From positions 169 to 64,168 of the forward strand of contig CAZMED010000001.1 of the NCBI GenBank assembly GCA_964565045.1: a stretch of 64,000 nt of DNA, in the 5' to 3' direction. Source of the DNA: an uncultured Thermoanaerobaculia bacterium (GTDB taxonomy: Bacteria > Acidobacteriota > Thermoanaerobaculia > Thermoanaerobaculales > Sulfomarinibacteraceae). Below the pieces are notes generated by a model, which was given only the letters and a program-made list of their open reading frames with translations, made no database searches and had not been told where the DNA came from. Shown one piece after another: positions 21,870 through 61,872 of this stretch (position 1 is its first letter; every line of letters begins with the position of its first letter). The position numbers were made by a program, and so were the translations under genes.

Positions 21870-21968
21870 CTGCCGCGGACACTTCATCGAGGCTGCCGTC
21901 CCGCCTTCCCGATTTCCGCTGCCTCGAACGCGGCACGGTCCTTGCTGAAGCTCCCGGCGGAGGATGAC

Positions 21969-26507: not shown

Positions 26508-26544
26508 CCTCCAAGTATAACCAGGCGTGCGCTACCATCTGGCG

Positions 26545-27503: not shown

Positions 27504-28019
27504 TCAGGTCCCGGCGGGGTCGATCGGCGCGGCTGCCGGGCGTCCGGCGAGCTCGCGATCGATCATCAGCAGGCCGTGCGGGTTCGACTCCACCATCTTC
27601 ACCTGGTGGTACAGCGTGTCGGCGGTCGCCTCCTCCTCCACCTGCTCGTTGACGTACCAGTGCAGCACGACCGTCGTCGCGTGGTCGTTCTCCGAGTTGG
27701 CGAGGTCGACGAGCCGGTTGATCCGCTCGCTGATGTGCTGCTCGTGCTTGAGCACCGCCTCGACCGCGGCCGCCGGCGAGGACCACTCGGACTGGGGGGC
27801 GTCGAGGGCCATCAGCTGCACGGTGCCGCCGCGCTCGTTGAGGTAGTCGAAGAGCTTCATGGCGTGCCCGAACTCCTCCTGGGCCTGGATCCGCATCCAG
27901 TGGGCGAACCCGTCGAGGTGCAGCTTGGTGAAGAATGCGGCCACCGACAGGTAGAGGTAGAAGGAGAAGAACTCGGCGTGAATCTGCTCGTTGAGACCTT
28001 GCTCGACCTTGGCTTTCAT
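27504..28019 (-). CDS. Ferritin (non-haem, Ftn-like)
   Basis: MKAKVEQGLNEQIHAEFFSFYLYLSVAAFF..., di-iron ExxH QAQEEFGHAMK, and WYVNEQVEEE. Confidence 0.88.
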   Translation of the reverse strand: MKAKVEQGLNEQIHAEFFSFYLYLSVAAFFTKLHLDGFAHWMRIQAQEEFGHAMKLFDYLNERGGTVQLMALDAPQSEWSSPAAAVEAVLKHEQHISERINRLVDLANSENDHATTVVLHWYVNEQVEEEATADTLYHQVKMVESNPHGLLMIDRELAGRPAAAPIDPAGT

Positions 28020-28133
28020 GGGTGGGTTCCTTTCGCTTGACGCGCCCGGATGTCGGGCCGCGCCGGACATCGACGTCAGTATAACGTGCCGCCGCCGCTC
28101 TGTATGCCAGCCTGTGACGGCTCGTGCCGCGCC

Positions 28134-29033
28134 TCAGTCGCGGCCGGGAAAGGAACGGGGCGCGATCCACGGGCGGATGTTGTTGAAGTCGGAAGGCTCT
28201 GCCCAGAGCAGACCGGCCGCACGGCCATCCGCGAGCGGCCGCCCGGCGCCCCACAGCACGGCGCCCGCCAGCACGATCGTGACGGCCAGAAAGGCCGCGC
28301 CGCGCGCGCTCGGCGGCTGCATCCGACACACCGACGGCGCCGGGTATCGGAACCATGCCAGGATCAGGACCGCTGCGACCGGGACCGCGAGAGCGGCCAG
28401 GCTGCGCCCTCGGGTCTCGCCGCCGAGGATCGTGGCCAGGGCCGCCCAGGTCGCCGCCGGCAGCACGAGATGGGCCGCCACCAGCGCCGCGCGGCGGACG
28501 CGGCCGAGATTCGGCGTGCGCCTGCGGGCGAGCTCGAGAAGCCGGACGGCCGGCGCCAGCGCGACGGCGGCGGCGGCGAGAGGCGCCGCCCACAAGGCGG
28601 CGGCGGGCAACCGCTGCAGGGCGAGCCAGCGCACGAGGTGCCCGTCGTCCGCGTCGAGCAGCGGCAGCCAGGCGCCTGCGACCACCGCCGCCGCCCACGC
28701 CGCCTGCAGGACCGTCAGCTCGACGGTCCAGGTTCGCGACCGCGGCCGCAGCGCCATGAGGACCACCGCCGCCACCAACGGCAGCAGCCACGAGCCCCAC
28801 CAGTATCCGAAGGCCCGGGGCAGCGACGCGAAGTTGAGGACCGGCTGGTTGACCAGGGCCCACACCTGGCGGTCGATGGGCAGGCTGAGCCCGATCCAGG
28901 CGCAGCCGCCGAGGACCGCGCCCAGCCCCTGGCCCGCGGCGGCCAGAACCAGGGTCGACGGGAAGGCTGCGGCGGCCGCCAGCCACGACACGACGATCAC
29001 CTGGGGCGCGCCCGGACCCGCTTCGGTGGACAT
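28134..29033 (-). CDS. Hypothetical polytopic membrane protein
   Basis: 299 aa with multiple hydrophobic helices rich in Ala/Leu/Trp. Start guessed at MSTEAG (complement 29031-29033). No family recognised. Confidence 0.5.
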   Translation of the reverse strand: MSTEAGPGAPQVIVVSWLAAAAAFPSTLVLAAAGQGLGAVLGGCAWIGLSLPIDRQVWALVNQPVLNFASLPRAFGYWWGSWLLPLVAAVVLMALRPRSRTWTVELTVLQAAWAAAVVAGAWLPLLDADDGHLVRWLALQRLPAAALWAAPLAAAAVALAPAVRLLELARRRTPNLGRVRRAALVAAHLVLPAATWAALATILGGETRGRSLAALAVPVAAVLILAWFRYPAPSVCRMQPPSARGAAFLAVTIVLAGAVLWGAGRPLADGRAAGLLWAEPSDFNNIRPWIAPRSFPGRD

Positions 29034-29061
29034 CGGCCGGCATGCTACCATGCCCCCCGCT

Positions 29062-31050
29062 ATGAAGGTGCAAGGCACGTGGCTGCAGTGTTTTCTTTGC
29101 CTCCTGGCGGTCGGAGGCTGGCTCGCGCCGCCGCTCCAGGCGCAGACCCTGCACCTCGAACGCCTGGGCAACGGCACCGAGCTCGTGCTGATCGGGCAAC
29201 CGCTCGCCGATGCCACCACCGTGGTCTGGCCGGGCCTCGCGGCGGACGGCGGACGGCCGCGGGTGGTGGTCGGAGGCGCCTTGACCCTGGTTGCGGACCT
29301 CGAGGCCGCGATGGGCGGCCTGGCTGCGGCGCCTCCGGTGGTGGTCGCCGTCGGCGCGTCCCCGACGCTCGACCTCCGCGGGGCCCTCGAACGCCTGGCG
29401 CCCGAAGGTCCGCCGTCGGCGCCATCGCGGCCATCCCGGCGGCTCGTCGACGAAGGCCGCATCGAACGCCGCCTGGGACCGCCCGGGTCGGATGTCGAGA
29501 TCCGCCTCGAGGTCAACCTGCCGCCGTCGGAAGATCCGCTTCGGACCCCGGTCGAAGTGCTGTGGGACATTCTGCCGGAAGCCCTGTCGACCGAGCTCGC
29601 CGGCCTGCGGACCCGGGTCGACGGGGGTCTCGGGGTGCTCGAGGCGCGAGCCCGGGCGGCCGACGTGGACATGACCCTGCGCCGCCTGCGGTTCGGCCTC
29701 GCGGCGATCGCCGGCAACCCGAGCCTTCAGCCCGACATGATCGAGGCCGCCGCCGAGCGCCTCGTGGTTCGGCGGCGGGCGGCGCTCGAGCGTCACCCCG
29801 AGGCCGCGCTCGGAGTCCTCGATCTGTGGCTCGAGGGTGGGGCGGCCGCGGTGCGCGAGTTTCTGTTCGGCGGCGACGGGGTGACGGTCGCCAGCGTTCA
29901 GGAGGCGGCCCGGGCGTGGCTGCCGCAGCACCCGGGTGCCGCGGTCGTGGTCCTGCCTCCGCAGGCCTTCAACCCCCGCTTCGCGTCGCCGCCGGTGGTG
30001 GTGCAGCTCGAAAGCGGGCTCACGGCCGCGGTGCTGGAGCGGCCGGGCTCGCAGCTCGCCACCGCCTGCCTGCGGCCCGTGGTGGTGCCCGACCTCGACG
30101 ACGATGCCGCGGCGGCCATCCTCACCAGGGTCGCCGCCGAGCTCCGCGGCCTCGCCGAGCGGCCGGGCTCGGTGGAGGTGCGGACGGCGCCGTCGCGTCT
30201 CGAGCTGGCGGCCTCTCCGCAGGCCTTCGCCGAGATGTTGGAGTCGCTCCGAAGGGCCCTGGCTGCCGTCGCTGCCGACGAGCAGCCCGTGGCGCTGGGA
30301 CCGGGGGACGCCCGACGGCGGGCGCTGCACCTGGCGGCCGGTCTGCTCGGCGTGGCCGACGGCGCGGTCCTGTCACCCTCCGCCCTTCTGCGGTGGGACA
30401 ACCTCGCCCTCGGCGTGGTGGTCGAGGATGAGGAGACCGCGATCGAGGCGGTGCGGAAGTTCTGGGCCTTCGACAGCGCGCACGCCGGCGCCTCCGTTCG
30501 GATGCTGGCGCCGGTCCCACCCACCCGGGAGGCGGTCGCCGGCTCGTCCTCGACCGTGGTGGTGGCGCTCGACCTCGATGGGGTGGCGGGCGAGGCCGAC
30601 CGCCGGGTGGTGGCGGAAATCCTCGCGCGCCGCGGTGCGGCCCTGTTTTCCGAGCACTCGTTCGAGGTGCTGCGACCCTTCGTGCCGGGACGGAGGGGGC
30701 TGCTCGTCGTGGTTTCGGCCGCGGCTCCGGTCGAGGCGATCGAGCGGATGCTGCGCAAGGCCTGGTCCGAGCTGACCCGTGCCCCCGGTGCGCAGGAGAT
30801 CGAGGGGCTGCGTCGCGAGGTGGCGGCGGCGGACTCCGCGTTCTGGAGCGGCGCCTCGGGCCGCGCCCGCCGGTGCGCCGCGGTGGCCGTCGGCGAGGCG
30901 GGCTGGCGGCCGGCTGCCGATATGGAGCTGGCGGTTCTCTCGCTGCCCTTGGAGCAGCTCGAGGCCGTCTTCGAAAGCCTCCGCGAGCTGGAGGCGATGC
31001 CGCTGACCGCGGCCGGTCTGCTGCCGATCGTCGAATCCGACGCGCGCTAG
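29062..31050 (+). CDS. Secreted protein with weak M16 (pitrilysin)-like pattern and no HxxEH zinc motif
   Basis: Signal peptide MKVQGTWLQCFLCLLAVGGWLAPPLQA, then LERLGNGTELVLI (an M16-type opening strand). No HxxEH anywhere in the first 150 aa. The 662-aa frame has consistent GC3. Confidence 0.45.
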   Translation: MKVQGTWLQCFLCLLAVGGWLAPPLQAQTLHLERLGNGTELVLIGQPLADATTVVWPGLAADGGRPRVVVGGALTLVADLEAAMGGLAAAPPVVVAVGASPTLDLRGALERLAPEGPPSAPSRPSRRLVDEGRIERRLGPPGSDVEIRLEVNLPPSEDPLRTPVEVLWDILPEALSTELAGLRTRVDGGLGVLEARARAADVDMTLRRLRFGLAAIAGNPSLQPDMIEAAAERLVVRRRAALERHPEAALGVLDLWLEGGAAAVREFLFGGDGVTVASVQEAARAWLPQHPGAAVVVLPPQAFNPRFASPPVVVQLESGLTAAVLERPGSQLATACLRPVVVPDLDDDAAAAILTRVAAELRGLAERPGSVEVRTAPSRLELAASPQAFAEMLESLRRALAAVAADEQPVALGPGDARRRALHLAAGLLGVADGAVLSPSALLRWDNLALGVVVEDEETAIEAVRKFWAFDSAHAGASVRMLAPVPPTREAVAGSSSTVVVALDLDGVAGEADRRVVAEILARRGAALFSEHSFEVLRPFVPGRRGLLVVVSAAAPVEAIERMLRKAWSELTRAPGAQEIEGLRREVAAADSAFWSGASGRARRCAAVAVGEAGWRPAADMELAVLSLPLEQLEAVFESLRELEAMPLTAAGLLPIVESDAR

Positions 31051-33180: not shown

Positions 33181-34719
33181 ATGGACTATCCACTCTGGGA
33201 CCTCGCGATGGGCGGTGGCGTGCTGATGGCCCTGGTGGCGATTCCGCACGTCATCGTGGCCCACTTCGCCATCGGCGGAGGTTTGGTGATCGTGGTCGCC
33301 GAGTCCCTGTCGGTTGCTCGCGGCGACGCCGCGCTGCGGGACCTCGCGCGGCGCTCGTCGCTGATGCTGATCCTGGTGTCGACGGTCTTCGGCGCGATCT
33401 CCGGGGTCGGGATCTGGGTGGTGGCGGGGCTGATCTCGCCGGCCGCCATCTCGGCCCTGATCCACACCTTCGTCTGGGGGTGGGCCATCGAGTGGGTGTT
33501 CTTCATTCTCGAGATCGTCGCCGCGCTGATCTACTACACCACCTGGGACCGGATCTCGAAGGGCGCCCACCTCATGGTCGGCTGGCTCTACGTCGTCGGC
33601 GCCTTCATGTCCCTGGTGGTCATCAACGGCATCATCACCTTCATGCTCACGCCCGGAAGCTGGCTTCAGACCGGGGCCTTCTGGGACGGCTTCTTCAACC
33701 CGACCTACTGGCCGTCCCTGGTGCTGCGCACCGGTATCGCCCTGCTGATGGCGACGGTGTTCATGGTCTTCGTGGCGCTCGGGACGACCGCGGCGCGGCG
33801 CGCCTCCGTGCTCCGCTACCTGGGTGGTTGGCTGGTCGCCGGCGCGCTCATCGCCTACGCGGGGTACCGGTGGTGGGAGGCGGCGCTTCCCGACACGGCG
33901 CGCGCCCTGTTCGCCCAGCCGGCGCCGGCCCTGAGCGGCCTTGCGGCGACGCGCAGCCTCACGCTGTGGGCGCTGGCGGTGGCGCTCGTCGGCGGGTCCC
34001 TGATCCTGATCGCCGCGCCGAAGCTCGCGCACGCCCTCACCGCCGTCATCGTGGCCCTGGCCGCGTTCACGTTCTTCGGGGGCTACGAGCGGCTGCGCGA
34101 GGGCATCCGCAAGCCCTTTCTGATCCACAGCCACCTGTTCTCGAACGGGCTCCTCGTGCGCGACATCCCGCGCCTCAACGAGTCCGGGGTCGTCGCGCAT
34201 TCCGGATGGTCGGCACGAGCGAGCGCCGACGACGGCGACGTCGGGCGCCAGGTCTTCCGCACCCAGTGCTCGAGCTGCCACACCCTCGACGGCTATCAGA
34301 GCATCCGCCGTGCGCTGCCGAGCTTCGACGACCTGCTGGCGGTGGTCGCGGCGGACTCGGCGGAAGCAGCCGAACCCGCGTACCGTGCCGAGTGCGGCGC
34401 CTGCCATTCGGACGCCACGGCCGCCGAGATGCGCGAGATGCTGCCGTCCGCCGAGGAGATGCGGGAAGACCCGGAGATGATCCACGACCTCAACCACGGC
34501 ATGATCTACGGCACCGTGTCCCTCCTCCAGGAGATGGGGGCCGCCTACGAGGCCGCCCCCAGCGGGCAGATGATCGACACCTCCGAGCTCCACTCGTCCT
34601 ACATGCCGCCTTTCGTCGGCACCGACGAGGAGCTCGAAGCCCTGGTCGAGTACCTGGCGGCGCTGTCCAGGGGTGACGACCTGAGGGCGCAGCGCGCGCC
34701 CGCGGGAGGTACCTCATGA
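33181..34719 (+). CDS. Cytochrome bd subunit-I-like (CydA-family) membrane protein with C-terminal di-haem cytochrome c module
   Basis: N-terminal polytopic region with CydA-like features (AIPHVIVAHFAIGGG, WGWAIEWVFFILEIV). There are two CxxCH motifs: CSSCH (34267-34281) and CGACH (34393-34407). Confidence 0.65.
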   Translation: MDYPLWDLAMGGGVLMALVAIPHVIVAHFAIGGGLVIVVAESLSVARGDAALRDLARRSSLMLILVSTVFGAISGVGIWVVAGLISPAAISALIHTFVWGWAIEWVFFILEIVAALIYYTTWDRISKGAHLMVGWLYVVGAFMSLVVINGIITFMLTPGSWLQTGAFWDGFFNPTYWPSLVLRTGIALLMATVFMVFVALGTTAARRASVLRYLGGWLVAGALIAYAGYRWWEAALPDTARALFAQPAPALSGLAATRSLTLWALAVALVGGSLILIAAPKLAHALTAVIVALAAFTFFGGYERLREGIRKPFLIHSHLFSNGLLVRDIPRLNESGVVAHSGWSARASADDGDVGRQVFRTQCSSCHTLDGYQSIRRALPSFDDLLAVVAADSAEAAEPAYRAECGACHSDATAAEMREMLPSAEEMREDPEMIHDLNHGMIYGTVSLLQEMGAAYEAAPSGQMIDTSELHSSYMPPFVGTDEELEALVEYLAALSRGDDLRAQRAPAGGTS

Positions 34720-35834
34720 GCCCCGACCTCATCCCGGCGCTTGACGCCGCCGGTCTCCCCGGTCCGCCGTGGCTCTTTCACGTCCTGCTGGTGTTCACCT
34801 TCTTCCTCCACCTGGTGTTCGTGAACCTGACCCTCGGGGGCACCCTGCTGGCGGCGGTCGCCCACCTGCAGAGCGGCGGGCGCCGCGAGGACTTCCGCGG
34901 CGTCCTCTCCGGGCGCCTGATGGCGGTCAACAACTACGGCATCTCGCTCACCATCACCACCGGGGTCGCGCCGCTGCTCTTCATCCAACTGCTCTACCAG
35001 CAGTACTTCTACACTGCGACCATCCTCATCGCCTGGTTCTGGCTCTCATTGCTCGCCCTGCTCACCGTCGGCTACTACACGGCCTATCTCTACAAGTTCC
35101 GCGGCGCCCCGGCGCGCGGCCACGGCGGCGGCCTGTGGCTTGGTATGTCGGCGCTGATGTTCTTCCTGATCGCGATGATCCACGTCGCGGTGCACCTGAT
35201 CCACGCCCAGCCGCAGCGCTGGGCCGACGTCGCCGGTGGGAGCTGGAACGTGCTCGCCGATCCCACCTACGTGCCGCGCCTCCTGCACTTCGTGCTCGCC
35301 GGCCTCGGCTTCGCGGCCCTCGTGGCCACATGGTGGGCGGTACGCCGCGCCGCTGATGGCGTGGACGCGGACACCAACGCCGCGATCGCCCGCTGGGGCT
35401 GGAGGTGGGCGCTGTGGACGACCGTCCTGCAGGTGGTCGACGGCTTCGTGCTGCTCGCTCTGCTGCCGCCGCCGGTCCTGCGTGGGGTGATGGTCGGCGG
35501 TGCGGCGACCCTGGTCCCGCTCGGGCTCGCGATCCTGCTCGGCATCGGGCTGCTGATGATGCTCGCGCGCAGTGCCGACCCGGTGCGGCATCCGGCGCTG
35601 GTCGGCGGCGCGCTCGGCGCCATGGTGCTGGCGATCGCCGTCATGAGCCTCACCCGCCACCAGGTCCGGGCCCTCTACCTGGAGCCCTTCACCTCGCAGT
35701 CCACCCACGTCGTGACCTCTCAGTGGGGCACCTTCGGGCTCTTCGTGGTGATCCTGGCCGCCGGTCTGGCGACCGTCGGGTACATGGTGCGGCGGGTCCT
35801 GACCTCGCCCGCCGACGGGGCCGACGCGGCGTAG
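34716..35834 (+). CDS. Polytopic membrane protein, probable partner subunit of the CydA-like protein
   Basis: 372 aa with ~9 hydrophobic helices. ATGA overlap with the upstream gene suggests translational coupling. No family recognised. Confidence 0.55.
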   Translation: MSPDLIPALDAAGLPGPPWLFHVLLVFTFFLHLVFVNLTLGGTLLAAVAHLQSGGRREDFRGVLSGRLMAVNNYGISLTITTGVAPLLFIQLLYQQYFYTATILIAWFWLSLLALLTVGYYTAYLYKFRGAPARGHGGGLWLGMSALMFFLIAMIHVAVHLIHAQPQRWADVAGGSWNVLADPTYVPRLLHFVLAGLGFAALVATWWAVRRAADGVDADTNAAIARWGWRWALWTTVLQVVDGFVLLALLPPPVLRGVMVGGAATLVPLGLAILLGIGLLMMLARSADPVRHPALVGGALGAMVLAIAVMSLTRHQVRALYLEPFTSQSTHVVTSQWGTFGLFVVILAAGLATVGYMVRRVLTSPADGADAA

Positions 35835-44618: not shown

Positions 44619-45470
44619 TCAACGGGATTCTCCCAGATTTTGTTGCAGCTCGCCCAGCAAGGGCCGCACCTGCTCGTCGAACATCGCGGCCGTGTCGGCG
44701 CCCTTGAGCAGCGAGATGGCCTTGGTGTTCTGTTCGACCATCTCCCGCAGCGCGTGAAAACCCTCGCCGCGTTCGATCAGGGTGCGCGCTGCACCGTACT
44801 GTTTGTCGATCGTCCGCTGGCCCCCGGTACCGACGACGTCGAGCGCCACCGCGCGGATCTTCTCGGCCAGCCCGAGCAGGGTAACAGGGCTCGCCCCCGC
44901 CTGCCAGCGCTGGCCCCGTTCTCCGGCCTCGCTCGCGCTGCCGAGCGCCACCAGGCCGGTGGTGATCAGCCCGAACAGGAGCTTCGAAACGTCGAACGGC
45001 GCCCACTTCAGCGCCCCCGCGATCTCCTCGATGGAGTGCTGGCCGTCGATCCGGGTGACCAGGATCCACTCCTGGGGGCTGAGGGTGACCTGGTCGGCGC
45101 CGCGGTCCCGTGGCGTGAAGTACGGCACGAGGTCGAGCGACGGGATCTTGCGCCGCAGCACCCGCCACTCGTCCAACCGGCGCGCCGCCTCCATCATCAG
45201 CGAGGCGTTCGACACGTGGATGGTGACCTGCTCGCACTCTTCGCCGGGCAGGAACTCGAAGGTTCCGTCCGCCCACATCGCCATCTCGAACACCGCGTTG
45301 TCGCCGCGGAGATTGCCGACGGCGGCGTCCACGATCTGTCCGTCGCGCAGGACGATGCGCCCGGCCTGCTCGTCGCGCTGGATGTTGAACGCGCCCGTCT
45401 TGCCGGAAACGCTCACCAGTTGGATGACGTCCGACAGCGGCAGCTCGCTCAACGACCCTTGCAGCGACAT
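44619..45470 (-). CDS. PATAN/DUF4388 domain protein (second copy in the window)
   Basis: MSLQGSLSELPLSDVIQLVSVSGKTGAFNIQ... (DUF4388 signature), followed by a SPQEWILVTRIDGQHSIEEIA wHTH-like segment. It lies 10 nt downstream of the tonB stop and 20 nt upstream of the TPR gene. Confidence 0.7.
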   Translation of the reverse strand: MSLQGSLSELPLSDVIQLVSVSGKTGAFNIQRDEQAGRIVLRDGQIVDAAVGNLRGDNAVFEMAMWADGTFEFLPGEECEQVTIHVSNASLMMEAARRLDEWRVLRRKIPSLDLVPYFTPRDRGADQVTLSPQEWILVTRIDGQHSIEEIAGALKWAPFDVSKLLFGLITTGLVALGSASEAGERGQRWQAGASPVTLLGLAEKIRAVALDVVGTGGQRTIDKQYGAARTLIERGEGFHALREMVEQNTKAISLLKGADTAAMFDEQVRPLLGELQQNLGESR

Positions 45471-45480
45471 TGTGGAGAGT

Positions 45481-46215
45481 CTACTGCAGATTGAATCGCA
45501 CCGTGAGGATGTAAAGGACCTCCACCGGCTTGCCGTTGAGCGTGGACGGCTCGAAGCGCCACTTCTGGACGGCGTCGACCGCGGTCTCGGTGAGCCCGAG
45601 CGGCAGGCCGCGCAGGACCTTGACGTTCTGCACCCGCCCGTCCTTGCCGATCGTGCATTCGAGCACGACAACGCCCTGGATCCGCGCCCGACGGGCCGCT
45701 TCCGGGTACACCGGCGAGGGGCCGCTGATCTTGACCGGCTCGGTGATGTTGCCGCCGACCACGAAGCGGACGGGGCCCTCCGGCTCGGGCGGGGGGGGCG
45801 CGTCGGGGACGCCGAGCACCAGGTTGTCGTCGGGCACGAAGTCGATGTTCTCGTCCGGCTGCTCGTCGCGGATCGGCTCGGGCTCGTCCGGCGTCGGATC
45901 GGGGATCGGGACCTTCTGGGTCTTCGGCTTGGGGATCTGCTGCATCTCGCGCCGTGGCGGCTGCTTGAACTTGACCTGCTTGACGACGTAGATCTTGCTC
46001 TTCTTCTCTTTGGCATCCGACAAGCCGCCGGCGAAGGAGGGCCACTGGACGGCGAAGACAATGACGTGGAACACGATCGCAATGCCGAAAGCCCAGCGCG
46101 CGAACTTCCGATCCTGGGTTTCCTCCGCGGCCAGCATTTCGGCCGTGGTCATCGGCATGTCGGAGTCGTCGACCGCGTCCGGCTTGGTCTTCTTGGGCTT
46201 CCCGGCGTCGCTCAT
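45481..46215 (-). CDS. tonB: TonB-family energy transducer
   Basis: TM anchor FARWAFGIAIVFHVIVFAV, a Pro-rich spacer (PPPPEPEGP), and the TonB_C motif YPEAARRARIQGVVVLECTIGKDGRVQNVKVL. GGGAG precedes ATG 46215. Confidence 0.88.
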   Translation of the reverse strand: MSDAGKPKKTKPDAVDDSDMPMTTAEMLAAEETQDRKFARWAFGIAIVFHVIVFAVQWPSFAGGLSDAKEKKSKIYVVKQVKFKQPPRREMQQIPKPKTQKVPIPDPTPDEPEPIRDEQPDENIDFVPDDNLVLGVPDAPPPPEPEGPVRFVVGGNITEPVKISGPSPVYPEAARRARIQGVVVLECTIGKDGRVQNVKVLRGLPLGLTETAVDAVQKWRFEPSTLNGKPVEVLYILTVRFNLQ

Positions 46216-46226
46216 GGCATTCTCCC

Positions 46227-46676
46227 TCACTGGATCCCGAGCATGGACCAGAGGTTCTCGATCTCGCGTCGGGTTGGAATCGAAATCGTCTTGATCTCCA
46301 TGTCGATCTTGTCGGGCGCTTGTCGCAGCTCGTCGAAGACCGTGATCATGTCGCCGTAGGTCGCGTCGGGGTCGGTGCGCAGGATCACCGGCTTGTCCGG
46401 GTTCTGCTTCAGCTTGTCCCCGATGTACGGCAGCATCGCCTCGAAGGACATACCCTGACCGTCGACCTCGATCGCGCCGCCCCGCATGACGTGGACGTCG
46501 ATCGAGTCTTCCTGCTTGATCTCGGGCGTCTGGGTGTCCTCGGGCAGGGCGAAGTCGAGCCCGCGGGTCGCCGAGAACGCCGAGGTGATCATGAAGTAGA
46601 TGATCAGCAGGAACGAGATGTCGGCCATCGATCCGGTGAAGATCTCGGACGGGACTTCCTTCTTCTTTATCTTCAT
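46227..46676 (-). CDS. exbD: Biopolymer transport protein ExbD/TolR (copy 2)
   Basis: Membrane anchor region (ADISFLLIIYFMIT) followed by an ExbD periplasmic domain; 149 aa. Confidence 0.88.
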   Translation of the reverse strand: MKIKKKEVPSEIFTGSMADISFLLIIYFMITSAFSATRGLDFALPEDTQTPEIKQEDSIDVHVMRGGAIEVDGQGMSFEAMLPYIGDKLKQNPDKPVILRTDPDATYGDMITVFDELRQAPDKIDMEIKTISIPTRREIENLWSMLGIQ

Positions 46677-46692: not shown

Positions 46693-47136
46693 TCAATTGA
46701 CGGTCTTCTGTTCGGACAGGAGGTAGATGAACTTCACCTTCGACTGTTTGAGCGCATCGAGCACCGCGTCGACCCTCTCGTAGGGCACGGCGTCGTCGGC
46801 CTTGATGATGAACTCCTTGTCCGGGTTCTGGGCGACCTCGGTCGAGGCGAAGGTGACGACCTCCTCGTCGGTGCTGACCGGCAGCGACATCTCCTCGCCG
46901 GTCGAGACGCGAACTGTCAACGGCGGGTTGGCATCGGGCGGCGAAATCGAAATCACGGCCGCCTTCTCCGGAACCTTCATCCGCACCCAGGTGTCGGGCA
47001 GGTCCATCTTCGTGCGGTCGACCTCGACCTTGTAAGTGAGGACGAAGAACACGATCAGCAGGAAGACGATGTCCGCCATCGATGCCGTGAAGATCTGCGC
47101 TCCGGTTTTGCGGTCCCTTCCGCGGATGAGTGCCAT
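46693..47136 (-). CDS. exbD: Biopolymer transport protein ExbD/TolR (copy 1)
   Basis: Membrane anchor region (ADIVFLLIVFFVLT) followed by an ExbD periplasmic domain; 147 aa. Confidence 0.88.
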   Translation of the reverse strand: MALIRGRDRKTGAQIFTASMADIVFLLIVFFVLTYKVEVDRTKMDLPDTWVRMKVPEKAAVISISPPDANPPLTVRVSTGEEMSLPVSTDEEVVTFASTEVAQNPDKEFIIKADDAVPYERVDAVLDALKQSKVKFIYLLSEQKTVN

Positions 47137-47150
47137 CGGCGGACTCCCTT

Positions 47151-47807
47151 CTAGGCCTGGCCCTCGCCCCCCTGGGCGTAACGCTGGCTGTCCATCTCGA
47201 CGAAGGTCTCGACGAGCATGTTGGAAGCGGTCTCGATGTCACGCACGAAGCGGGTGATCTTGGTGGTGTACCAGTTGAAGACCAGCTGCGCCGGGATGGC
47301 GATGATGAGACCGGTGGCGGTCGTGATCAGCGCCTCGGAGATGCCGACAGCCACCGCGGCGGGGTTCGTCAGACCCTGCTCGGCGAGGGTGGCGAAGGAC
47401 TTGATCATGCCGGCGACGGTGCCGAGGAAGCCCAGCATGGGGGCCACGTTGGCGGTTGTGGCGAGCACGCCGAGGCGCTTTTCGAGCCGATCGAGCTCGT
47501 ACAGAGCGGCGTTCTCGATGGTCTTCTCGATGTCTTCCCGGGAGTGGCCGTAGCGCAGCAGACCGGCCTTCATGACCGAGGCCACCGGGCTCTTGTTCTG
47601 CTCGCAGACCTTGATCGCCTCTTTGACGTTGCGGTTGACCAGCAGCGCCTTGCGGATCTTGGTCAGAAACTCGTTGACATTGATCTTGGCCTTGGAAAAG
47701 ACAATGAAACGCTCGATTGCTACGGTGGCGGCCAACACCGAGAAAAAGAGCAGCGGGTACATGAAGATCCCACCCTGGCGGAAATACTCTGCAACCTGTC
47801 CAGTCAC
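47151..47807 (-). CDS. exbB: MotA/TolQ/ExbB proton-channel protein
   Basis: GGIFMYPLLFFSVLAATVAIERF and the C-terminal channel helices GLTNPAAVAVGISEALITTATGLIIAIP. GTG start with a GAGGAGG RBS. Confidence 0.9.
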   Translation of the reverse strand: MTGQVAEYFRQGGIFMYPLLFFSVLAATVAIERFIVFSKAKINVNEFLTKIRKALLVNRNVKEAIKVCEQNKSPVASVMKAGLLRYGHSREDIEKTIENAALYELDRLEKRLGVLATTANVAPMLGFLGTVAGMIKSFATLAEQGLTNPAAVAVGISEALITTATGLIIAIPAQLVFNWYTTKITRFVRDIETASNMLVETFVEMDSQRYAQGGEGQA

Positions 47808-49248: not shown

Positions 49249-49350
49249 GGACCCTCCTCGTGTCCCGCCCCGCGCGGCTGCTGCGGATGCGGAGGTTGGG
49301 CATTATACCTCGGGGCCGGCGCCGGCCGCCGGGGATGCGGCGGCCTTCGG

Positions 49351-49378
49351 TTGACTTTGCAAACCCGTCACACATAAT
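49351..49378 (+). promoter_or_regulatory. Putative sigma70-type promoter for the Ser/Thr kinase gene
   Basis: TTGACT (49351-49356), a 16-nt spacer, then CATAAT (49373-49378), about 47 nt upstream of ATG 49425. Pattern match only. Confidence 0.4.
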
Positions 49379-49424
49379 GAGGTTTGGACACTTCGACCAC
49401 GGCAGGGGCTGCGAGGGCGGTTTG

Positions 49425-52355
49425 ATGCGTGCGAACATCCTTGTCATCGAGTACGAACCGCGGTCCGTGGAGCACGTGCAGGCCGCGCTGGCGGATGCCG
49501 GCTACCGACTCGAGATCGCCTCCACGGTCAACGACGCGGTCAATCGCTGCGCCCACTTCGAGCCCACCGTGGTGATCATCACCTCGCTGCTGCCCAACCT
49601 CAAGATCGAGGACGCGATCACCCAGTTGCGGGCGCGCGCCGGACTGCGCGCCACCCCCTTCCTGATCCTGATGTCGGGCTATCGCGGCGACACGCCGCGC
49701 CAGGACGCGGTTCGCTTCGGGGCCCAGGACATTCTGCCCCGGCCGTTCGGCCGCGATGATCTGCGGGCCCGCGTCGAGGAGCTGGTGAGCGCCGCGCCCA
49801 ACCCCGCGGCCACCCAGGCGATTCCGCAGGAGATGTTGGAGACCCTGCGCCGCAGTGCGGGCCTCGACGGCGGGGGGGGTGCAGTGACCTCGGACGATCT
49901 CTTCGGCGACATCGTCTTCGACGTCGAAGGAGGCGAGCCCCCCCCGACGGCCGCGACCGACGACGTGCTGTCATCGGCCGCCGGCGGCAAGAGCTCCGAG
50001 CCCGCGCCGGGGGCGAAGCCGTCCGCGGTCGACGAGGCGCTCGCCGACCTTCTCGCGAGCACCAGGAGCGCCCCGACCTCGAAGCAGGACCGGGACGTCG
50101 CGGCGGACGTCGACAAGATGCTCTCGGAAACCCTGTCGGGCCTCGAGGTCCGCCACCGTAAGGCGCCGGCTTCGCAGCCGTCCGCGCCGCGTGCCGAGCC
50201 GCCGGCCGCGCCGCGCCCGAAACCTTCGCCCTCGGGGCCGCCGGCCGCCGGCCGGCAGCCCGCCGCTCCCGGGTCGCCGCCCGCGGCCAGGGTCGCGTCG
50301 CCCGCGCCGCCACCCGCGGCGGGTTCGACGCCACCCCGGGTGCGGCCGCCGGAGCAGGCGCCGAAGGCGCCCCCTTCCGCGCCCGCAGCCGGGACCCCGG
50401 CCGCGAGCGTCCCGCCGCCATCGAAGCCTTCACCCGCCGCACCGTCCGCCCGGGCGGCGTCCATACGCGGCAGCCGCTTCGGTCAGTACGTTCTCGAGGA
50501 GCACATCGCCACCGGCGGCATGGCCGAGGTGTACAAAGCGCGGATGATGGGCATGGAGGGCTTTCAGAAGACCGTCGCCATCAAGAGGATCCTGTCCAAC
50601 CTGACGGACAGCGACGAGTTCGTGCGCATGTTCATCGACGAGGCCAAGCTCGCGGCACAGCTCAACCACAACAACATCATCCACATCTACGATCTCGGCA
50701 AGGTCGACCGTTCGCACTACATCGCCATGGAGTTCATCGACGGCCGCGACCTGCGCTCGATCCTGGCGGAGTGCCAGGAGCGCGGCCTCCGCATGCCGAT
50801 CCCGCTCGCCCTCCACATCACCGTCCTGCTCGCCTCGGCGCTCGACTACGCGCACAAGAAGCGGGACTTCGAAAACCGCGATCTCGGCCTGGTGCATCGC
50901 GACGTGTCCCCTCAGAACGTCCTCATCTCGTACCAGGGCGACGTGAAGCTGTGCGACTTCGGCATCGCGAAGGCGGCGTCGAAGGCATCCCAGACCCGCG
51001 CCGGGGCGCTCAAGGGCAAGCTGCAGTACATGTCCCCCGAGCAGGCATGGGGCAAGAGCATCGACCACCGGTCCGACATCTTCTCGCTCGGTCTGGTGCT
51101 GTACGAGATGCTGACCTCGAAGAAGGCGTTCGCGGGCGACTCCGAGCTGTCGGTTCTCGAGCAGGTCCGCGACCCCATCATCGCTGCTCCGTCCTCACAC
51201 AATCCGGAGGTCGGTCCGGAGATCGACCGCATCGTCTTCCAGGCGCTGCAGGCGGACCGCGATGACCGCTACCAGTCCGCGTTCGAGCTCCAGCGGGACA
51301 TCGAGCAGGTCATGCGGAGCCGGGAGTGGAGCGCTGACCAGACGGCCATCGCCGATTTCCTGGCCGCACTTCAGCGCAAGGACCCGCCCCGCACCGGTCC
51401 GCCGGGCGAAGCTGTCGGGCAGAGCGCCGCCAGCCCGCCGCGCGAACCGCCGCCGCCGCGCCGACCCGCCCCACCGACGGGACCGGGTCCGCGCGGCCCC
51501 GCCATCGCGCCTTCCAAGCCGCTCGACGTGCCGGCGCCGGATGCCGAGCTCGAACGGGCGCTCGGCCCCCGCCGCGATCCGGTACCGCCGCCGCTGGCGG
51601 CCGAGCTCGACGACACCGGCAGTGCCGCCGCTGCGGGCGGCTCCCGTCAACTGTGGGTGCTGCTGGCGATCCTGATCGTGGTGGTGGCCGCGGCGGGCTG
51701 GTACTTCCTGCGCGGCGGATCGGGGCCCGGTTCGGTATCGGGCGAACCCATGGCGGTGCCGGTGGCGACCGAGACCCCGAGCCCGGAGCCGGCTCCGGGC
51801 CTGCTCACCGAGCAGGAGCTGATCGAGCAGGCCCGGGCGGTTGCGGCGGCGGAGATCGAGAAGCAGGAGGAGGCCCTGCGGCTGCGACTGGAGGACGAGT
51901 TCCCGACGCCGACGCCGTACCCTCCGACTCCGACCCCGACCGCGACCGCCACGCCGACCGTGACCTCGACCCCGACCAGGGTGCCGCCGACCCCGACCCG
52001 TCTCGCGCCGACCGCGACGCCGGTGCCCCCGACGCCGACGCCGGCGGTCCGTGAGGGTGATATCGTGGCGCTCGGCCCCGGGGTCGTCCCGCCGGTCGCG
52101 ATCCAGCAGTCCAGTCCCGAGTACCCGCGGCTGGCGCATCGCCTGCGCAAGTCGGGGGTGGTTGAAGCGGAGGCGCTGGTGGGAATCGACGGCTCGGTCG
52201 AGGAGTTTCGTCTGATTGCCGTCGACTTCCCCGGGGTGGGCTTCGAGAAGGCGACCGAGGACGCCGTCAGGAGCTGGCGCTACAAGCCGGCGACCAAGCT
52301 CGGGGTGAGGGTGCGGATGTGGGTCGCGGTCCGGGTTCCGTTCGTGCTGGAATAG
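49425..52355 (+). CDS. Multidomain Ser/Thr protein kinase: REC-like N-domain, Pro/Ala-rich linker, Hanks kinase, TM helix, Pro/Thr-rich spacer, TonB C-terminal-like domain
   Basis: The kinase spans about aa 350-625 ([39 protein letters not shown]). The TM helix [20 protein letters not shown] lies at nt 51651-51710. The PT-rich stretch is at about nt 51900-52045. The C-terminal ~100 aa align with the TonB_C of the tonB gene in this window ([34 protein letters not shown]...[10 protein letters not shown]). Confidence 0.85.
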
Positions 52356-52374: not shown

Positions 52375-52602
52375 ATGGCTGGCCTTACCGAATCGCAGAA
52401 GAAGTTCTACGAGGAGGCGCTGCAGCAGACGAAGCGCGAGGTTCAGGAGATCGAGGGCCAGATCCAGGAAGAGCTCACCCGCGTCAAGGAGCGGATCGCG
52501 GACCTCCAGGTCGCCCAGAAGGCGGCCCGCCAGATGTACGACGCCGCGTGCCAACGTCTCGGGATCCCGAACGATCTCGACGGTGACGATTCGGACAGCT
52601 GA
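52375..52602 (+). CDS. Small acidic coiled-coil protein (75 aa)
   Basis: GGAGGGGAG RBS 5 nt upstream, strong GC3 bias, and heptad-like sequence QEIEGQIQEELTRVKERIADLQVAQKAARQ. It starts 19 nt after the kinase stop. Confidence 0.55.
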   Translation: MAGLTESQKKFYEEALQQTKREVQEIEGQIQEELTRVKERIADLQVAQKAARQMYDAACQRLGIPNDLDGDDSDS

Positions 52603-58085: not shown

Positions 58086-58124
58086 AACGTTCTGACGTTC
58101 TAACGTTCCAACTTTCTAACGATC
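58086..58124. repeat. Five tandem 8-bp units (NACGTTCN)
   Basis: aacgttct gacgttct aacgttcc aactttct aacgatcg. It overlaps the stop codon and last two codons of the PHP gene. Confidence 0.75.
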
Positions 58125-59198
58125 GCCCAGCCAGGCCTCGAACTCGTCGGCGTGGCGCACGTTGAGGATCCGCTCCCGGGGCACCTCGGCACGCATGGCG
58201 ATGGCGGCGGCGTAGGCGTCGAACTCGAGGTGCGGTACGGCGTGCGCGTCCGACGCGAGCACCACCTCGCAGCCCGCTGCGACGGCGAGCCGCGCGAGGT
58301 CCGCGTCGAGGTCCTGGCGGCGCGGGAAGCCGTTGATTTCGACCGCGACGCCGAGCTCGGCGCACGCCGCGAAGACCGTCTCCCAGCGCGCCTTGAGTCC
58401 GGGCCGGTGGTGGAAATGGCGGCCGCGCGGGTGGGCGAGAACGTGCACTCCCGGGGTCGCGACGGCGCGCAGGAGCCGGTCGGTCTGGTCGCGCTCGGGA
58501 TCGAAGATGCTGTGCACCGCGGCGAGAACACACTCGACCTCGAGGCGCTCCCCCTGGGGAACGTCGAGGGTGCCGTCGGCCAGGATCTCCACCTCGAGGC
58601 CCTGGAAGACACGGTGGTCCTCGCCGTGTCGGGAGTTCCAGGACTCGATGCGCCGGCGCTGCAGCCGCAGGCCCTCCCGGTCGAGCCCGGAGGCCACCTC
58701 GAGCCCCCGTGAGTGGTCGGTCACCATGGACCAGGCGAAACCCCGGCGTCCGCAGGCGCGGGCCATGGCGTCGAGGGAGGCCTTGCCGTCGGAGTCGCGG
58801 GTGTGCCAGTGGCAGGCGCCGCGCAGACGCGCCGGCTGCAGCTCGGCCGGCCCGTCGCGCAGGGTTTCGGCGACCGCTGCACGCGACAGGTAACCGGCGC
58901 GAGCGGCGCGCCGCCGCTGCGGGCGGTCGAGCGCCAGGCGCTGGACCGCGGCCTGCACCGCGTCCTCGCTGCGGCAGGCCGCGAGCTGCTCGATCAGCGG
59001 CCGCAGCCAGTCGGGGGCGTCCTCGAGGGCTGCGCGGTGGGCGATCCCCGGGGTGTCGAAGGCCGCGTAGCCGGCGCGCAGGAGGGCCACCCTGCGGTCG
59101 CCGGGCGGCTCCGACTCCGAGAGGGTGAACAGGGCTTCGGCGAGGGCGCTGTTCGGCAGCCCGGTGCGCGTGTGGGGTGGTGTCGTCGAAACCGTCAT
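58116..59198 (-). CDS. PHP-domain phosphoesterase related to the PolX C-terminal domain; polymerase core absent
   Basis: PHP metal motifs ACHWHTRDSDG, MVTDHSRGL and VLASDAH. The N-terminal ~60 aa resemble the PolX 8-kDa helical domain (NSALAEALFTLSE...LLRAGYAAF). At 361 aa it is far shorter than the ~570 aa of a full PolX. Confidence 0.7.
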   Translation of the reverse strand: MTVSTTPPHTRTGLPNSALAEALFTLSESEPPGDRRVALLRAGYAAFDTPGIAHRAALEDAPDWLRPLIEQLAACRSEDAVQAAVQRLALDRPQRRRAARAGYLSRAAVAETLRDGPAELQPARLRGACHWHTRDSDGKASLDAMARACGRRGFAWSMVTDHSRGLEVASGLDREGLRLQRRRIESWNSRHGEDHRVFQGLEVEILADGTLDVPQGERLEVECVLAAVHSIFDPERDQTDRLLRAVATPGVHVLAHPRGRHFHHRPGLKARWETVFAACAELGVAVEINGFPRRQDLDADLARLAVAAGCEVVLASDAHAVPHLEFDAYAAAIAMRAEVPRERILNVRHADEFEAWLGDR

Positions 59199-59256
59199 CA
59201 CTCCACCATAACCCGCCACCGTCGGGCCGGCTTCCAGGCGCGGTCGAAGCCCGCCG

Positions 59257-61872
59257 CTACGGCGTATCCCCGCCGGCCGGAGCGTCCGCGGAGTCGAGCC
59301 GCTCGAGATCGGTTCGGATCTTGCCCGCGTAGTGCGCCACCGCCGCCGGGTTGCCCATGATCATGTCGAGCTGCCGTGTGTGCATGATCAGATAACCGAC
59401 CACCTCGAGCTGCCGCTCCATGGCCGCGGCCGGGAGGCCGGCGAGGCGGGCGGTGGCGTGGTCCTCGCGCGCCTCGACGGTGAAGCCGCGCTCGTCGAGG
59501 AGCTCGCAGATCAGGCGTACCCGGGCCGCTTTGCGCATGAGGTCGGCGGCGCCGCCCTTGAAGGAGAAGCTGAGGTAGTTCTCGTGGTCGCGGCTTCCGA
59601 CCACCGACTCGACGGCGGCGAAGTGGAAGCCGAAGCGCGACTGCAGGTTCATGAAGCTCGAGGAGATCATGAAGTAGTTCTGCTGCGCGTAGGGCGTGCG
59701 GAAGGGGGTCGCCAACGCCGGGTTGGCGGTGGCCTCGAAGAGCACCGACGCGAAGCCGCGGCCGCTCATGGCGGGTGGCCCTTCCCAGGGAACCGCGACC
59801 ATCCCCCGCCAGACCGCGAGCATCGGCCGGCTCGCGATCTCCTCGAGGCGCACGTACTTGCCGACGATCTCGTGGGTGAAGCCGTCCTCGAGATCGAGCA
59901 CCCACCACTGCATGGGGACGTTGTGGTGGAGCTGCTTGCTGGCGTGCCTGGGGAAGCGGTGGCTCTTGCCGAAGTCGAACATCTCTCGCACCGCCTTCTC
60001 GTGGCAGAAGCGGGTGATGTCGTGCAGCGTGCGGCAGGCCGAGGGTCGGAAGGACACGTCGTCCGGGTCGAGGAGGTTGAGCGGGCTGATCAGCCGCAGC
60101 GCGTCGCGCAGGGTGGCGTGGACGGGGCTGCCCTCCATCGCCGACGGCCGCGCTCGTTCTTCGCCGAGCAGGGCCTCCACCCGGCCGGGGTAGACCGCGC
60201 CCCCGTCGGCGTCGACGGTCACGACGGCGCCCTCCTCGAGGGCCTCGAGGGCGGAGACGCCGAACAGCGCCGGCAGACGCGACTCGCGCGCGACCGTGGC
60301 GAGGTGGCCCGCAATCCCTCCCTCGGCCGCGACCACCGCGACGGCGCGCGACAGCAGGGCCGCCCACCGCGGCAGCGGGTGCGACACCACGAGGACCGCG
60401 CCGTCGGGAAACCGCAGCGCGTCGCTGTCGCGCTCCACCCTGATGACGGGTCCGGAGGCGCGGCCCGGGCTCACGCAGAGGCCGCCCTCAAGCAACGGCG
60501 TGACGTCCTGCGGCCGCGCCGGCGGGAGGGCTTCCGCTTCCACGACCTGCTGCAGCGGGCGGCTCTGCAGCACCACCACGTCGCCGGCGCCGTCGATCGC
60601 CCACTCCACGTCCTGCGGCAGGCCGTAGTGGTCCTCGAGATCGAGTGCCGCCGCCGCCACCCGCGCCGCCTCCTCGTCGCTCAGCGAAGGCCGGGATCGG
60701 TCGGCTGCCGGGACCTCCTCCCGCGCCACCCCTTCTGCGGGATCGAGAACCAGCCGCGCCCTCTTGTCGGCGATCCGGCGCTTCAAGATCCGCGGCGGAC
60801 GCTCCCGCGAGAGGATGAACTGGTCGGCGGCAAAGCGGCCGTCGACGACCGATTTCGGGAGGCCGAGGGTCGAGCTGACGACGACCGTGTCGTCACGGGC
60901 GTCGCCCGGGTTGGCGGTGTAGGCGACCCCTCCAGCCCGGGCGTCGACCATGACGGTGCAGCCGACGCACATCGCGAGCCGATCGTCGCGCAGGCCGCGC
61001 TGCAGCCGGTACTGCATGGCCTGCGGCGTGTACTTGCTGGCCACCACCTGCCGATAGGCGTCCGCCAGGTGCTCGGGCCGCAGATTGAGCTCGGTGGCGT
61101 ACTGGCCCGCGAAGGACGCTTCAGGGCTGTCCTCGCCGACCGCGCTCGAGCGCAGCGCCACCGAAGGTCGCCCGCCGGCCGCGGCCGCGAGGTCCTCGTA
61201 GGCCGAGCCGATCGCCTCGCCGAGCTCGGCCGGGACCTCGGCGTTGACCACCAGCTGCTGCAGCTCGGAGCTCAGGCGGAAGATCTCGGCCGGCTCGTCG
61301 CTGTCGGAGGTCTGGATGAGGCGGTCGATCTCCGGCTGCAGGTCGTTGTGCTCGAGCAGCAGCTGGTACGCCCGCCCCGTGATGGCGAATCCTTCCGGCA
61401 CCGACAGCCCGACGACGTTGGCCACCTCGCCGAGGTTGGCCATCTTCGAGCCCACCTCGTCGACCAACGCCCGGTCGATCGACGACAGCGGAACCACCAG
61501 CGGCGCGTCCTCGCTCGGCGGGCGAGCCGCCAGCAGGCCCCGGATCTGCCCCTGGATACTGTCCAGGACGCCGAAGAGCTCGCGGTACGTCCCGGGCGCG
61601 AGCTCGTCGAGGTGGCGGACCATGGCGAAGACGCTGACGCCGGCCGCCGTGCAGCGCGAGTGCACGAAGGCCATCCCGTACAGCTGGCCGCCCGCCAGCG
61701 TCTGCTCCATCTCGGCCATCGTGTCGAGGGCCTTGTTGTTGGCCGCCAGCAGCAGCCGCAGGGCGTGGTAGCGTTCCTTGAAGAGGGCGGTGCCGTCGTC
61801 TCCGCCGAGGCCGGCGGTCGGTCGCAGTCGGCCGGTCAGCCAGCGGAGCAGCCGATCAAGGACCGCGACCAC
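59257..61872 (-). CDS. PEP synthase-like protein: N-terminal helical domain, PPDK_N ATP-grasp, PEP-utilizer phosphohistidine domain, unassigned C-terminal domain
   Basis: VGSKMANLGEVANVVGLSVPEGFAIT (PPDK_N opening) and a swivel-domain motif AAEGGIAGHLATVARESRLPALFG, with the His codon at complement 60304-60306. The last ~270 aa lack the TIM-barrel NDL/CGE-type motifs I associate with PpsA/PPDK. Confidence 0.75.
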   Translation of the reverse strand: MVAVLDRLLRWLTGRLRPTAGLGGDDGTALFKERYHALRLLLAANNKALDTMAEMEQTLAGGQLYGMAFVHSRCTAAGVSVFAMVRHLDELAPGTYRELFGVLDSIQGQIRGLLAARPPSEDAPLVVPLSSIDRALVDEVGSKMANLGEVANVVGLSVPEGFAITGRAYQLLLEHNDLQPEIDRLIQTSDSDEPAEIFRLSSELQQLVVNAEVPAELGEAIGSAYEDLAAAAGGRPSVALRSSAVGEDSPEASFAGQYATELNLRPEHLADAYRQVVASKYTPQAMQYRLQRGLRDDRLAMCVGCTVMVDARAGGVAYTANPGDARDDTVVVSSTLGLPKSVVDGRFAADQFILSRERPPRILKRRIADKRARLVLDPAEGVAREEVPAADRSRPSLSDEEAARVAAAALDLEDHYGLPQDVEWAIDGAGDVVVLQSRPLQQVVEAEALPPARPQDVTPLLEGGLCVSPGRASGPVIRVERDSDALRFPDGAVLVVSHPLPRWAALLSRAVAVVAAEGGIAGHLATVARESRLPALFGVSALEALEEGAVVTVDADGGAVYPGRVEALLGEERARPSAMEGSPVHATLRDALRLISPLNLLDPDDVSFRPSACRTLHDITRFCHEKAVREMFDFGKSHRFPRHASKQLHHNVPMQWWVLDLEDGFTHEIVGKYVRLEEIASRPMLAVWRGMVAVPWEGPPAMSGRGFASVLFEATANPALATPFRTPYAQQNYFMISSSFMNLQSRFGFHFAAVESVVGSRDHENYLSFSFKGGAADLMRKAARVRLICELLDERGFTVEAREDHATARLAGLPAAAMERQLEVVGYLIMHTRQLDMIMGNPAAVAHYAGKIRTDLERLDSADAPAGGDTP

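Follow-up and report, generated by a model that had tools for sequence, protein, structure and literature searches.

Why should a bacterial Ser/Thr kinase end in a TonB C-terminal domain? This question is raised by one gene (positions 49425–52355) in a 64,000-nucleotide (nt) stretch of DNA, hereafter the window, from an uncultured Thermoanaerobaculia bacterium of the phylum Acidobacteriota (contig CAZMED010000001.1). Inward signalling by TonB-dependent transporters (TBDTs) is known from the FecA-FecR-sigma route, which needs energised TonB. The original prediction, made from the letters of the window, was that the product of this gene senses outer-membrane receptors and converts their state into phosphorylation in the cytoplasm. 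In the present study, we consider it quite possible, although somewhat short of probable, that the product is a receptor-type inner-membrane kinase whose TonB domain docks on the TonB boxes of transporters, and that this engagement leads to cytoplasmic Ser/Thr phosphorylation.

The gene is on the forward strand and starts with an ATG at 49425 within a frame that is open from 49260 to 52355. The single 976-codon frame of the original prediction is real: its 976-amino acid (aa) product matches the deposited 976-aa protein P0001 with 100% identity over the full length. Pfam domain calls were judged against curated cut-offs, and Response_reg, Pkinase, and TonB_C all exceeded theirs. These three domains are the Pfam set of the single chain, with no PASTA or FecR match. 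The layout of the gene and its neighbours is summarized in Table 1.

The presence of Pkinase and TonB_C on one chain was proposed at the outset as a profile check, and it extends well beyond the window. In the protein database, this trio of Pfam domains recurs in more than 115 clusters of 870–1040 aa and 50–78% identity; the named ones go by 'TonB family protein', and their organisms are labelled Acidobacteriota. A locus survey, in which one genome per species was scanned, yielded 80 loci, almost all labelled Thermoanaerobaculia, Thermoanaerobaculales, Candidatus Sulfomarinibacteraceae, or Acidobacteriota. The TonB_C end was present in 68 of the 69 loci with enough sequence. The kinase gene is a core gene, in single copy per locus, across the class. 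We concluded that it represents an orthologous family of receptor-type Ser/Thr kinases across the class Thermoanaerobaculia. An artefact, namely two genes joined erroneously in sequencing or assembly, or a gene in decay, is refuted by the same uninterrupted architecture in so many independent clusters and loci and by the conservation of the domains, and we assign it almost no probability; the gene is not split by a frameshift.

The evidence on the C-terminal domain is as follows. TonB_C (PF03544) was matched by aa 897–975 with 46.8 bits against a cut-off of 24.6, over profile positions 2–79 of 79. The sequence matched the C-terminal domain of Escherichia coli TonB (1u07, E = 1.4e-7) and also 2gsk and 2grx, and the predicted alignment with the TonB encoded in the window was reproduced (35% identity over 94 aa, E = 5e-14). 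In an AlphaFold model of the periplasmic region, which was built from 24 family sequences, the pLDDT value (predicted local distance difference test) of this domain was above 90. When the model was compared with the PDB using Foldseek, the top 17 matches were all C-terminal domains of TonB, FusB, HasB, or TonB2 (best E = 1.8e-6). They included 1u07, 2gsk, 6i97, and 2grx and chains solved in complex with BtuB, FhuA, FoxA, and TbpA. Target-normalised TM-scores against TonB bound to BtuB (2gsk), FhuA (2grx), and FoxA (6i97) were 0.84–0.85. TolA domains matched the predicted fold only at E of approximately 0.6. Of 63 aligned orthologues, at least 60 have kept the YP motif, and the last β-strand is conserved. 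By profile, sequence match, and predicted fold, the C-terminal domain is a genuine TonB-type domain. A full-length AlphaFold model gave good domains, a poor kinase N-lobe, and unusable inter-domain information, and was excluded from the fold search.

The domain is predicted to lie in the periplasm. The one transmembrane (TM) helix that had been predicted is the sole hydrophobic segment of the protein, at exactly the predicted coordinates, and AlphaFold modelled it as a helix over aa 741–762. Because there is a single TM helix and no signal peptide, because the kinase, which needs ATP, is N-terminal to the helix, and because the N-terminal TM flank is rich in Lys and Arg across orthologues, established topology rules place the kinase in the cytoplasm and the C-terminus in the periplasm, as originally supposed. 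The cytoplasmic part would then comprise approximately 740 aa, consisting of a pseudo-receiver, a linker, the kinase, and a juxtamembrane segment. On the periplasmic side, a conserved charged helix is followed by the stalk, which includes the PTPTP-type stretch expected at nt ~51900–52045 and found at 51903–52043. The periplasmic spacer totals 133 aa here and has a median of 150 aa in orthologues, which is comparable to the spacer of TonB itself. Judging from this length, it would reach the outer membrane.

The Pkinase match (aa 355–617) scored 135.9 bits against a cut-off of 31.7. The motifs of a Hanks-type kinase are present, namely VAIK (K387), HRD (491–493), N498, DFG (511–513), and SPE (537–539). 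K387, HRD, N498, DFG, the activation-loop residue T524, and P538/E539 were invariant in 66 orthologues, and S537 of SPE was replaced by Ala in three of them. The invariance of the catalytic residues and T524 indicates that catalysis is under selection. However, the catalytic loop reads HRDVSPQN (aa 491–498, window 50895–50918), in which the Lys of the canonical HRDxKxxN is replaced by Ser; the description of a complete Hanks kinase was, therefore, slightly too strong. This Ser was found in 120/120 family proteins and 66/66 orthologues (186 sequences), whereas all 119 of the other bacterial kinases that we fetched had Lys. RIO-type atypical kinases likewise carry Ser at this position. A full-text literature search, with part of the PMC manuscripts outside its reach, turned up no description of an HRDVSP-type motif. 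We consider kinase activity to be plausible from the sequence. The best NCBIfam match of the kinase part was the PASTA kinase model NF033483 (292 bits against a cut-off of 450), over aa 354–662 only.

The REC-like domain at the N-terminus was confirmed as to its fold, but not as a working receiver. Response_reg was matched by aa 5–118 (35.1 bits, cut-off 30.2), AlphaFold modelled five strand-helix units in a (βα)5 fold with pLDDT of 85–90, and 67 solved receivers matched, with 3lte as the best (E = 2.1e-8). In the alignment to 3lte, T53 stands opposite the phospho-acceptor Asp and E9-Y10 at the acidic pair DD. The 'T' site of receivers is S84, and the 'K' site is R106, which was Arg in 33 and Lys in 26 of the 66 complete orthologues. 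The acceptor position was Ser in 30 orthologues, Thr in 26, Ala in 5, and Asn in 4, and never Asp. The domain can be classified as an aspartate-less pseudo-receiver by the definitions of pseudo-receivers, the aspartate-less kind included, given in PMC12632262. It ranks among the best-conserved parts of the protein in the orthologue alignment. The Pro/Ala/Ser-rich linker that follows was expected to span ~220 aa and measures 215 aa (aa 136–350; P 19%, A 20%, S 12%). Short conserved motifs lie at TQAIPQEML (aa 130–138), TSDDLFGDI (aa 155–163), and LSxTLSGL (aa 233–240), and distant orthologues keep TS...FGD of the second motif as well as the third.

The tightest functional associate of the kinase appears to be a 75-aa protein, which we regard as a candidate substrate or adaptor. 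Its open reading frame (ORF) lies directly 3' of the kinase gene in 69 of 69 informative loci, with 50–88% identity; in the 76 loci with this ORF, the median intergenic gap was ~27 nt. Its conservation exceeds that of the pseudo-receiver and that of the TonB_C domain. Its conserved residues are T5 (Thr or Ser in 70/77), Y12, T19 (72/77), and Y55, and it carries the motif QMYDAAC.RLG.PNDLE and an acidic tail. No Pfam family was matched above its cut-off, with only sub-threshold coiled-coil noise. The protein family contains 488 clusters, all stand-alone and 73–80 aa long, and the names given to it in other sources are inconsistent guesses. An exact copy of the window's protein (HSO23220.1) is labelled 'Chondromyces sp.' (Myxococcota) in NCBI. 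Related loci, with neighbouring genes of up to 96% protein identity, are labelled Thermoanaerobaculia or Candidatus Sulfomarinibacteraceae, and the Chondromyces label looks wrong; one further locus of the survey (L074), labelled Deltaproteobacteria, may be a similar mislabelling.

The gene context supports a link to TonB-dependent uptake. In the window, a canonical exbB-exbD-exbD-tonB cluster lies 1.6 kb from the kinase gene, with ruvC and yebC in between; the kinase gene is divergent from yebC-ruvC, and accD and folC lie downstream of it. Linkage to exbBD-tonB was found in 26 of the 51 loci with enough upstream sequence. It was present in 17/18 loci whose kinase domain was more than 70% identical to that of the window, and in 9/33 more distant loci. 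On its own, this linkage could be inherited synteny, and we rejected co-location with exbBD-tonB as proof of function because it is limited to 26/51 loci, mostly of close relatives. In loci that lack the cluster, the kinase gene and the small ORF are followed immediately by genes for a Peripla_BP_2 binding protein, a FecCD permease, and an ABC ATPase (ABC_tran), and then by accD. This trio is an importer of the siderophore, haem, or cobalamin type; in a TonB-dependent pathway, this is the half in the inner membrane. Among the 43 loci that were informative on both sides, exbB upstream only was found in 22, the importer downstream only in 18, both in none, and neither in 3, such that the kinase gene stands beside exbB-exbD-tonB or the importer in 40/43 loci. 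Even in one of the three with neither (L033), the binding protein is still present, and a TBDT-like outer-membrane protein is encoded upstream. A TBDT-like protein, with CarboxypepD_reg and an outer-membrane β-barrel, is encoded two genes upstream of the kinase in seven loci. In the clade with this TBDT-like neighbour, a ~455-aa protein with an ATP-synt_ab nucleotide-binding domain is encoded between the outer-membrane protein and the kinase (8218–9585 on the reverse strand in L033; 7492–8850 on the reverse strand in L056). It shows 77–90% identity across 13 loci and is possibly Rho or another hexameric ATPase.

The proximity of the Ton system suggests another explanation, in which the protein is an energised TonB paralogue, that is, a functional TonB powered by the ExbB-ExbD next to it and equipped with a large regulatory cytoplasmic extension. 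Its TonB-like spacer and C-terminal domain, and the linkage to exbB-exbD-exbD in 22/43 loci, would suit this role. However, a TonB whose TM helix contains a His is already encoded in the exb cluster, and the linkage is lost in approximately half of the orthologues. Moreover, the remark that the TM helix lacks the SHLS-type motif of TonB holds across the family: SxxxH was found in 0/66 orthologues and a His in 2/66, and no TM residue is conserved across the wider kinase family. The helix is also internal (aa 743–762), unlike the N-terminal TM helix expected of a functional TonB. At the level of motifs, these data support the view that the protein is not built for energisation by ExbBD, and we regard an energised paralogue as highly improbable.

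The absence of the ExbBD-coupling motif from a protein with the TonB fold and signature would also be expected of an inside-out regulator, in which the un-energised TonB domain acts as a decoy that competes with the real TonB, and the part with the kinase and pseudo-receiver sets its availability or location and thereby throttles uptake. In E. coli, periplasmic C-terminal fragments of TonB inhibit TonB-dependent transport, and the kinase gene adjoins a canonical exbBD-tonB in the 22 loci mentioned above. Nevertheless, there is no known route by which cytoplasmic phosphorylation would act across one unconserved TM helix and ~130 disordered residues, and both the catalytic residues and the small cytoplasmic partner are invariant, which speaks for an output in the cytoplasm. 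We consider such a decoy to be improbable.

The mechanism that we favour, docking on TBDTs, builds on the architecture, predicted fold, conservation, operon partner, and gene context, all of which were observed; what we infer, besides the topology, is which partner the domain docks on, that signalling runs from the outside in, and what the outputs are. The TonB-type domain would pair by a β-strand with the TonB box, or a similar strand, exposed by a loaded TBDT in the outer membrane, and this docking would proceed without energisation by ExbBD. Engagement may then alter kinase activity, for example, through clustering or through a change in dimer geometry transmitted by the periplasmic helix. 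The resulting phosphorylation would tell the cell that a TonB-dependent substrate is present at the outer membrane; this substrate would probably be a metal chelate, for example, a siderophore, haem, or cobalamin. Among the candidates for first substrates or adaptors, the 75-aa protein and, within the kinase protein itself, the pseudo-receiver and linker rank highest. We further speculate, more doubtfully, that this is a third trans-envelope route from TBDTs, in which an un-energised TonB domain signals to the kinase, and the kinase to Ser/Thr of its own pseudo-receiver, the 75-aa protein, or both, forming a Ser/Thr relay that imitates a two-component system and controls the uptake of metal chelates.

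Several results weigh against docking on TBDTs as the function of this protein. The Ton-pathway association is recurrent, yet a few events underlie it rather than 40 independent ones: in a neighbour-joining tree, exbB adjacency fell in two deep clades and required at least four changes, and importer adjacency required at least three. The housekeeping neighbours ruvC, yebC, accD, and folC are likewise syntenic. No TBDT was identified by Pfam among the ~30 other ORFs of the window, and none was consistently adjacent across loci. No riboswitch that would name the substrate of the importer was found at the Rfam gathering threshold in six importer-bearing loci. The NCBIfam model TIGR01352 (tonB_Cterm) scored 26.2 bits, which is 0.9 under its cut-off of 27.1, although we do not count so narrow a shortfall as a negative. 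Furthermore, the absence of the catalytic-loop Lys makes the catalytic strength uncertain. Lastly, the domains of GltG and GltJ that resemble the TonB C-terminal domain are predicted to bind GltD and not the TonB box of a transporter (PMC11761067).

The points on synteny and on GltG/GltJ lead to the explanation that the protein is an envelope-state or growth kinase, anchored through its TonB-type domain either to peptidoglycan or to some non-TBDT protein in the periplasm or outer membrane, and that it reports the integrity or spacing of the envelope. Such a role would be similar to that of PASTA kinases, which report the state of the cell wall in Gram-positive bacteria. The kinase studied here is a core gene amid housekeeping genes (ruvC, yebC, accD, folC, and ftsEX), the nearest relatives of its TonB_C domain outside the orthologues are, for the most part, not classical TonBs but proteins in which two to five TonB_C domains stand in tandem, and its sister kinase families bear the envelope modules PEGA, PD40/TolB-like, and TPR. 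GltG and GltJ provide a precedent for cytoplasmic modules, one TM helix, a disordered linker, and a domain resembling the TonB C-terminal domain with a partner that is not a TBDT (PMC11761067). In contrast, the canonical TonB signature is kept and the match to TonB is far better than that to TolA, genes of the Ton system or of chelate importers, and not cell-wall genes, recur in the neighbourhood, and there are no Glt-like genes near the locus. We consider an envelope-state kinase to be unlikely, although it deserves to be kept in mind.

A comparison with known systems clarifies what is distinctive about the protein. It shares with E. coli-type TonB a single TM helix, a long Pro-rich periplasmic spacer, and a TonB_C domain with the YP motif. 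However, its pseudo-receiver and kinase lie in a cytoplasmic part of ~740 aa, in contrast to ~10 residues in TonB, its spacer is Pro/Thr-rich after a conserved helix and not composed of EP/KP repeats, its TM helix is unconserved and without SxxxH, and a separate canonical TonB is encoded nearby. Because of these differences, the database name 'TonB family protein' is misleading on function. With the PASTA kinases (PknB, PrkC, and StkP), it has in common a Hanks kinase, a disordered juxtamembrane segment, one TM helix, an extracytoplasmic binding module, and the status of a lineage core gene. It differs from them in having no PASTA repeats, an N-terminal pseudo-receiver, the HRDVSPQN loop, and, in a Gram-negative setting, a sensor module that would reach towards the outer membrane. 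The likeness to FecA-FecR-FecI is functional only and hypothetical; both would report a loaded TonB-dependent receptor through a bitopic inner-membrane protein. However, the kinase protein lacks a FecR domain and any sigma or anti-sigma component, no sigma factor is encoded beside its gene, its output would be Ser/Thr phosphorylation, and the proposed contact is the TonB box and not an N-terminal signalling extension. GltG and GltJ of Myxococcus gliding contain FHA (GltG) or ZnR and GYF (GltJ), one TM helix, a long disordered periplasmic segment, and a domain resembling the TonB C-terminal domain (PMC11761067). These domains match TonB structures weakly, with a Foldseek E of ~1e-2, as opposed to 1.8e-6 for the kinase protein; the predictions for GltG and GltJ are that they bind GltD and work with an Agl motor, and they contain no kinase.

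The combination of a kinase with TonB_C is not unique. Six other fusions (P0126, P0270, P0281, P0283, P0287, and P0318) belong to a different kinase lineage, with an N-terminal kinase, the canonical HRDxKxxN, no pseudo-receiver, and from one to three TonB_C domains in tandem, after which some of them have TPRs. Such fusions are rare and scattered among sister kinases with PEGA, CarboxypepD_reg, PD40/TolB-like, or TPR modules. Since unrelated kinases carry one to three TonB_C domains, the TonB_C module has been recruited by kinases repeatedly. Separately, among the 150 closest TonB_C representatives, tandem arrays of two to five TonB_C domains were found in 119 of the 137 non-kinase proteins (P0122–P0269). 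Full-text literature searches, which left part of the PMC manuscripts outside, yielded no published description of a kinase-TonB_C protein.

The architecture is already present in public databases under automatic names; it represents receptor Ser/Thr kinases with a sensor module that was not previously studied. If docking on TBDTs proves correct, the physical link between a kinase and a TonB-type docking domain would offer an inward route that is simpler than FecA-FecR-sigma and distinct from it, and would carry receptor Ser/Thr kinase signalling as far as the outer membrane in a Gram-negative phylum. To our knowledge, almost nothing is known experimentally in that phylum. The invariant operon partner, the Ser/Thr at the acceptor site of the pseudo-receiver, and the unusual catalytic loop are handles that the family offers. 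In hundreds of acidobacterial genomes, a signalling protein is concealed behind the automatic name 'TonB family protein'.

Table 1. Features of the kinase gene and of neighbouring genes in the window
Feature	Residues (aa)	Position	Strand	Basis or remark
Whole kinase gene	1–976	49425–52355	+	Putative bitopic membrane Ser/Thr kinase: pseudo-receiver, linker, kinase, TM helix, helix, Pro/Thr stalk, TonB_C
Promoter-like site, TTGACT-16 nt-CATAAT		49351–49378	+	47 nt 5' of the ATG
Asp-less pseudo-receiver	1–125	49425–49799	+	Pfam, predicted fold, alignment to 3lte
Disordered Pro/Ala/Ser-rich linker, predicted cytoplasmic		49800–50474	+	Composition, motif conservation, pLDDT <50
Hanks-type kinase domain	351–640	50475–51344	+	Pfam, invariant catalytic residues
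Pro-rich juxtamembrane linker, predicted cytoplasmic	641–742	51345–51650	+	Poorly conserved, pLDDT <50
TM helix	743–762	51651–51710	+	Sole hydrophobic segment, Kyte-Doolittle 2.5
Charged α-helix, predicted periplasmic	796–825	51810–51899	+	Conserved, including distant orthologues; pLDDT ~75–84
Pro/Thr-rich stalk	827–873	51903–52043	+	47 aa; modelled extended, low confidence
TonB C-terminal domain	890–976	52092–52352	+	YP motif, C-terminal β-strand
Gene for 75-aa helical protein, predicted cytoplasmic		52375–52602	+	20 nt after the kinase stop; putative co-transcription
exbB		47151–47807	-	Canonical Ton system
exbD		46693–47136	-	Canonical Ton system
exbD (second)		46227–46676	-	Canonical Ton system
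tonB		45481–46230	-	TonB_C 83.6 bits; His-containing TM helix

The promoter-like site in Table 1 matched 10 of 12 consensus positions, with one site found against 0.1 expected, and is a consensus match only. Scanning 3' of the kinase gene, we found no terminator-like site before 52800. An Rfam scan of the whole 64-kb window revealed nothing at the gathering score, and thus no tRNA, rRNA, or riboswitch. Neither a PP2C phosphatase nor an FHA protein was identified by Pfam among the ~30 other ORFs of the window.

The following observations concern other parts of the window. Long ORFs with a high GC content at the third codon position occupy both strands at 27982–31047 (+) and 28137–29726 (-), with no Pfam match at E up to 1e-5. 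The ORFs at 21855–22850 (+), 34677–35831 (+), and 58119–59360 (-) have no Pfam family. A protein with FecR and Glucodextran_B-like domains is encoded at 6709–8322 (-), 41 kb from the kinase gene and beside a SurA-like peptidyl-prolyl isomerase; no adjacent sigma factor was identified. A protein of ~359 aa at 18033–19109 (-) combines CarboxypepD_reg with TPR, and CarboxypepD_reg also heads the TBDT-like proteins near the kinase in distant loci. Two proteins of the window contain a DUF4388/PatA_N domain, one at 25131–26531 (-) and the other at ~44619–45480 (-), directly after tonB, where it is followed by a TPR gene. This DUF4388-TPR arrangement after tonB is conserved in relatives, and the exbB-exbD-exbD-tonB-DUF4388-TPR unit may be a functional module.

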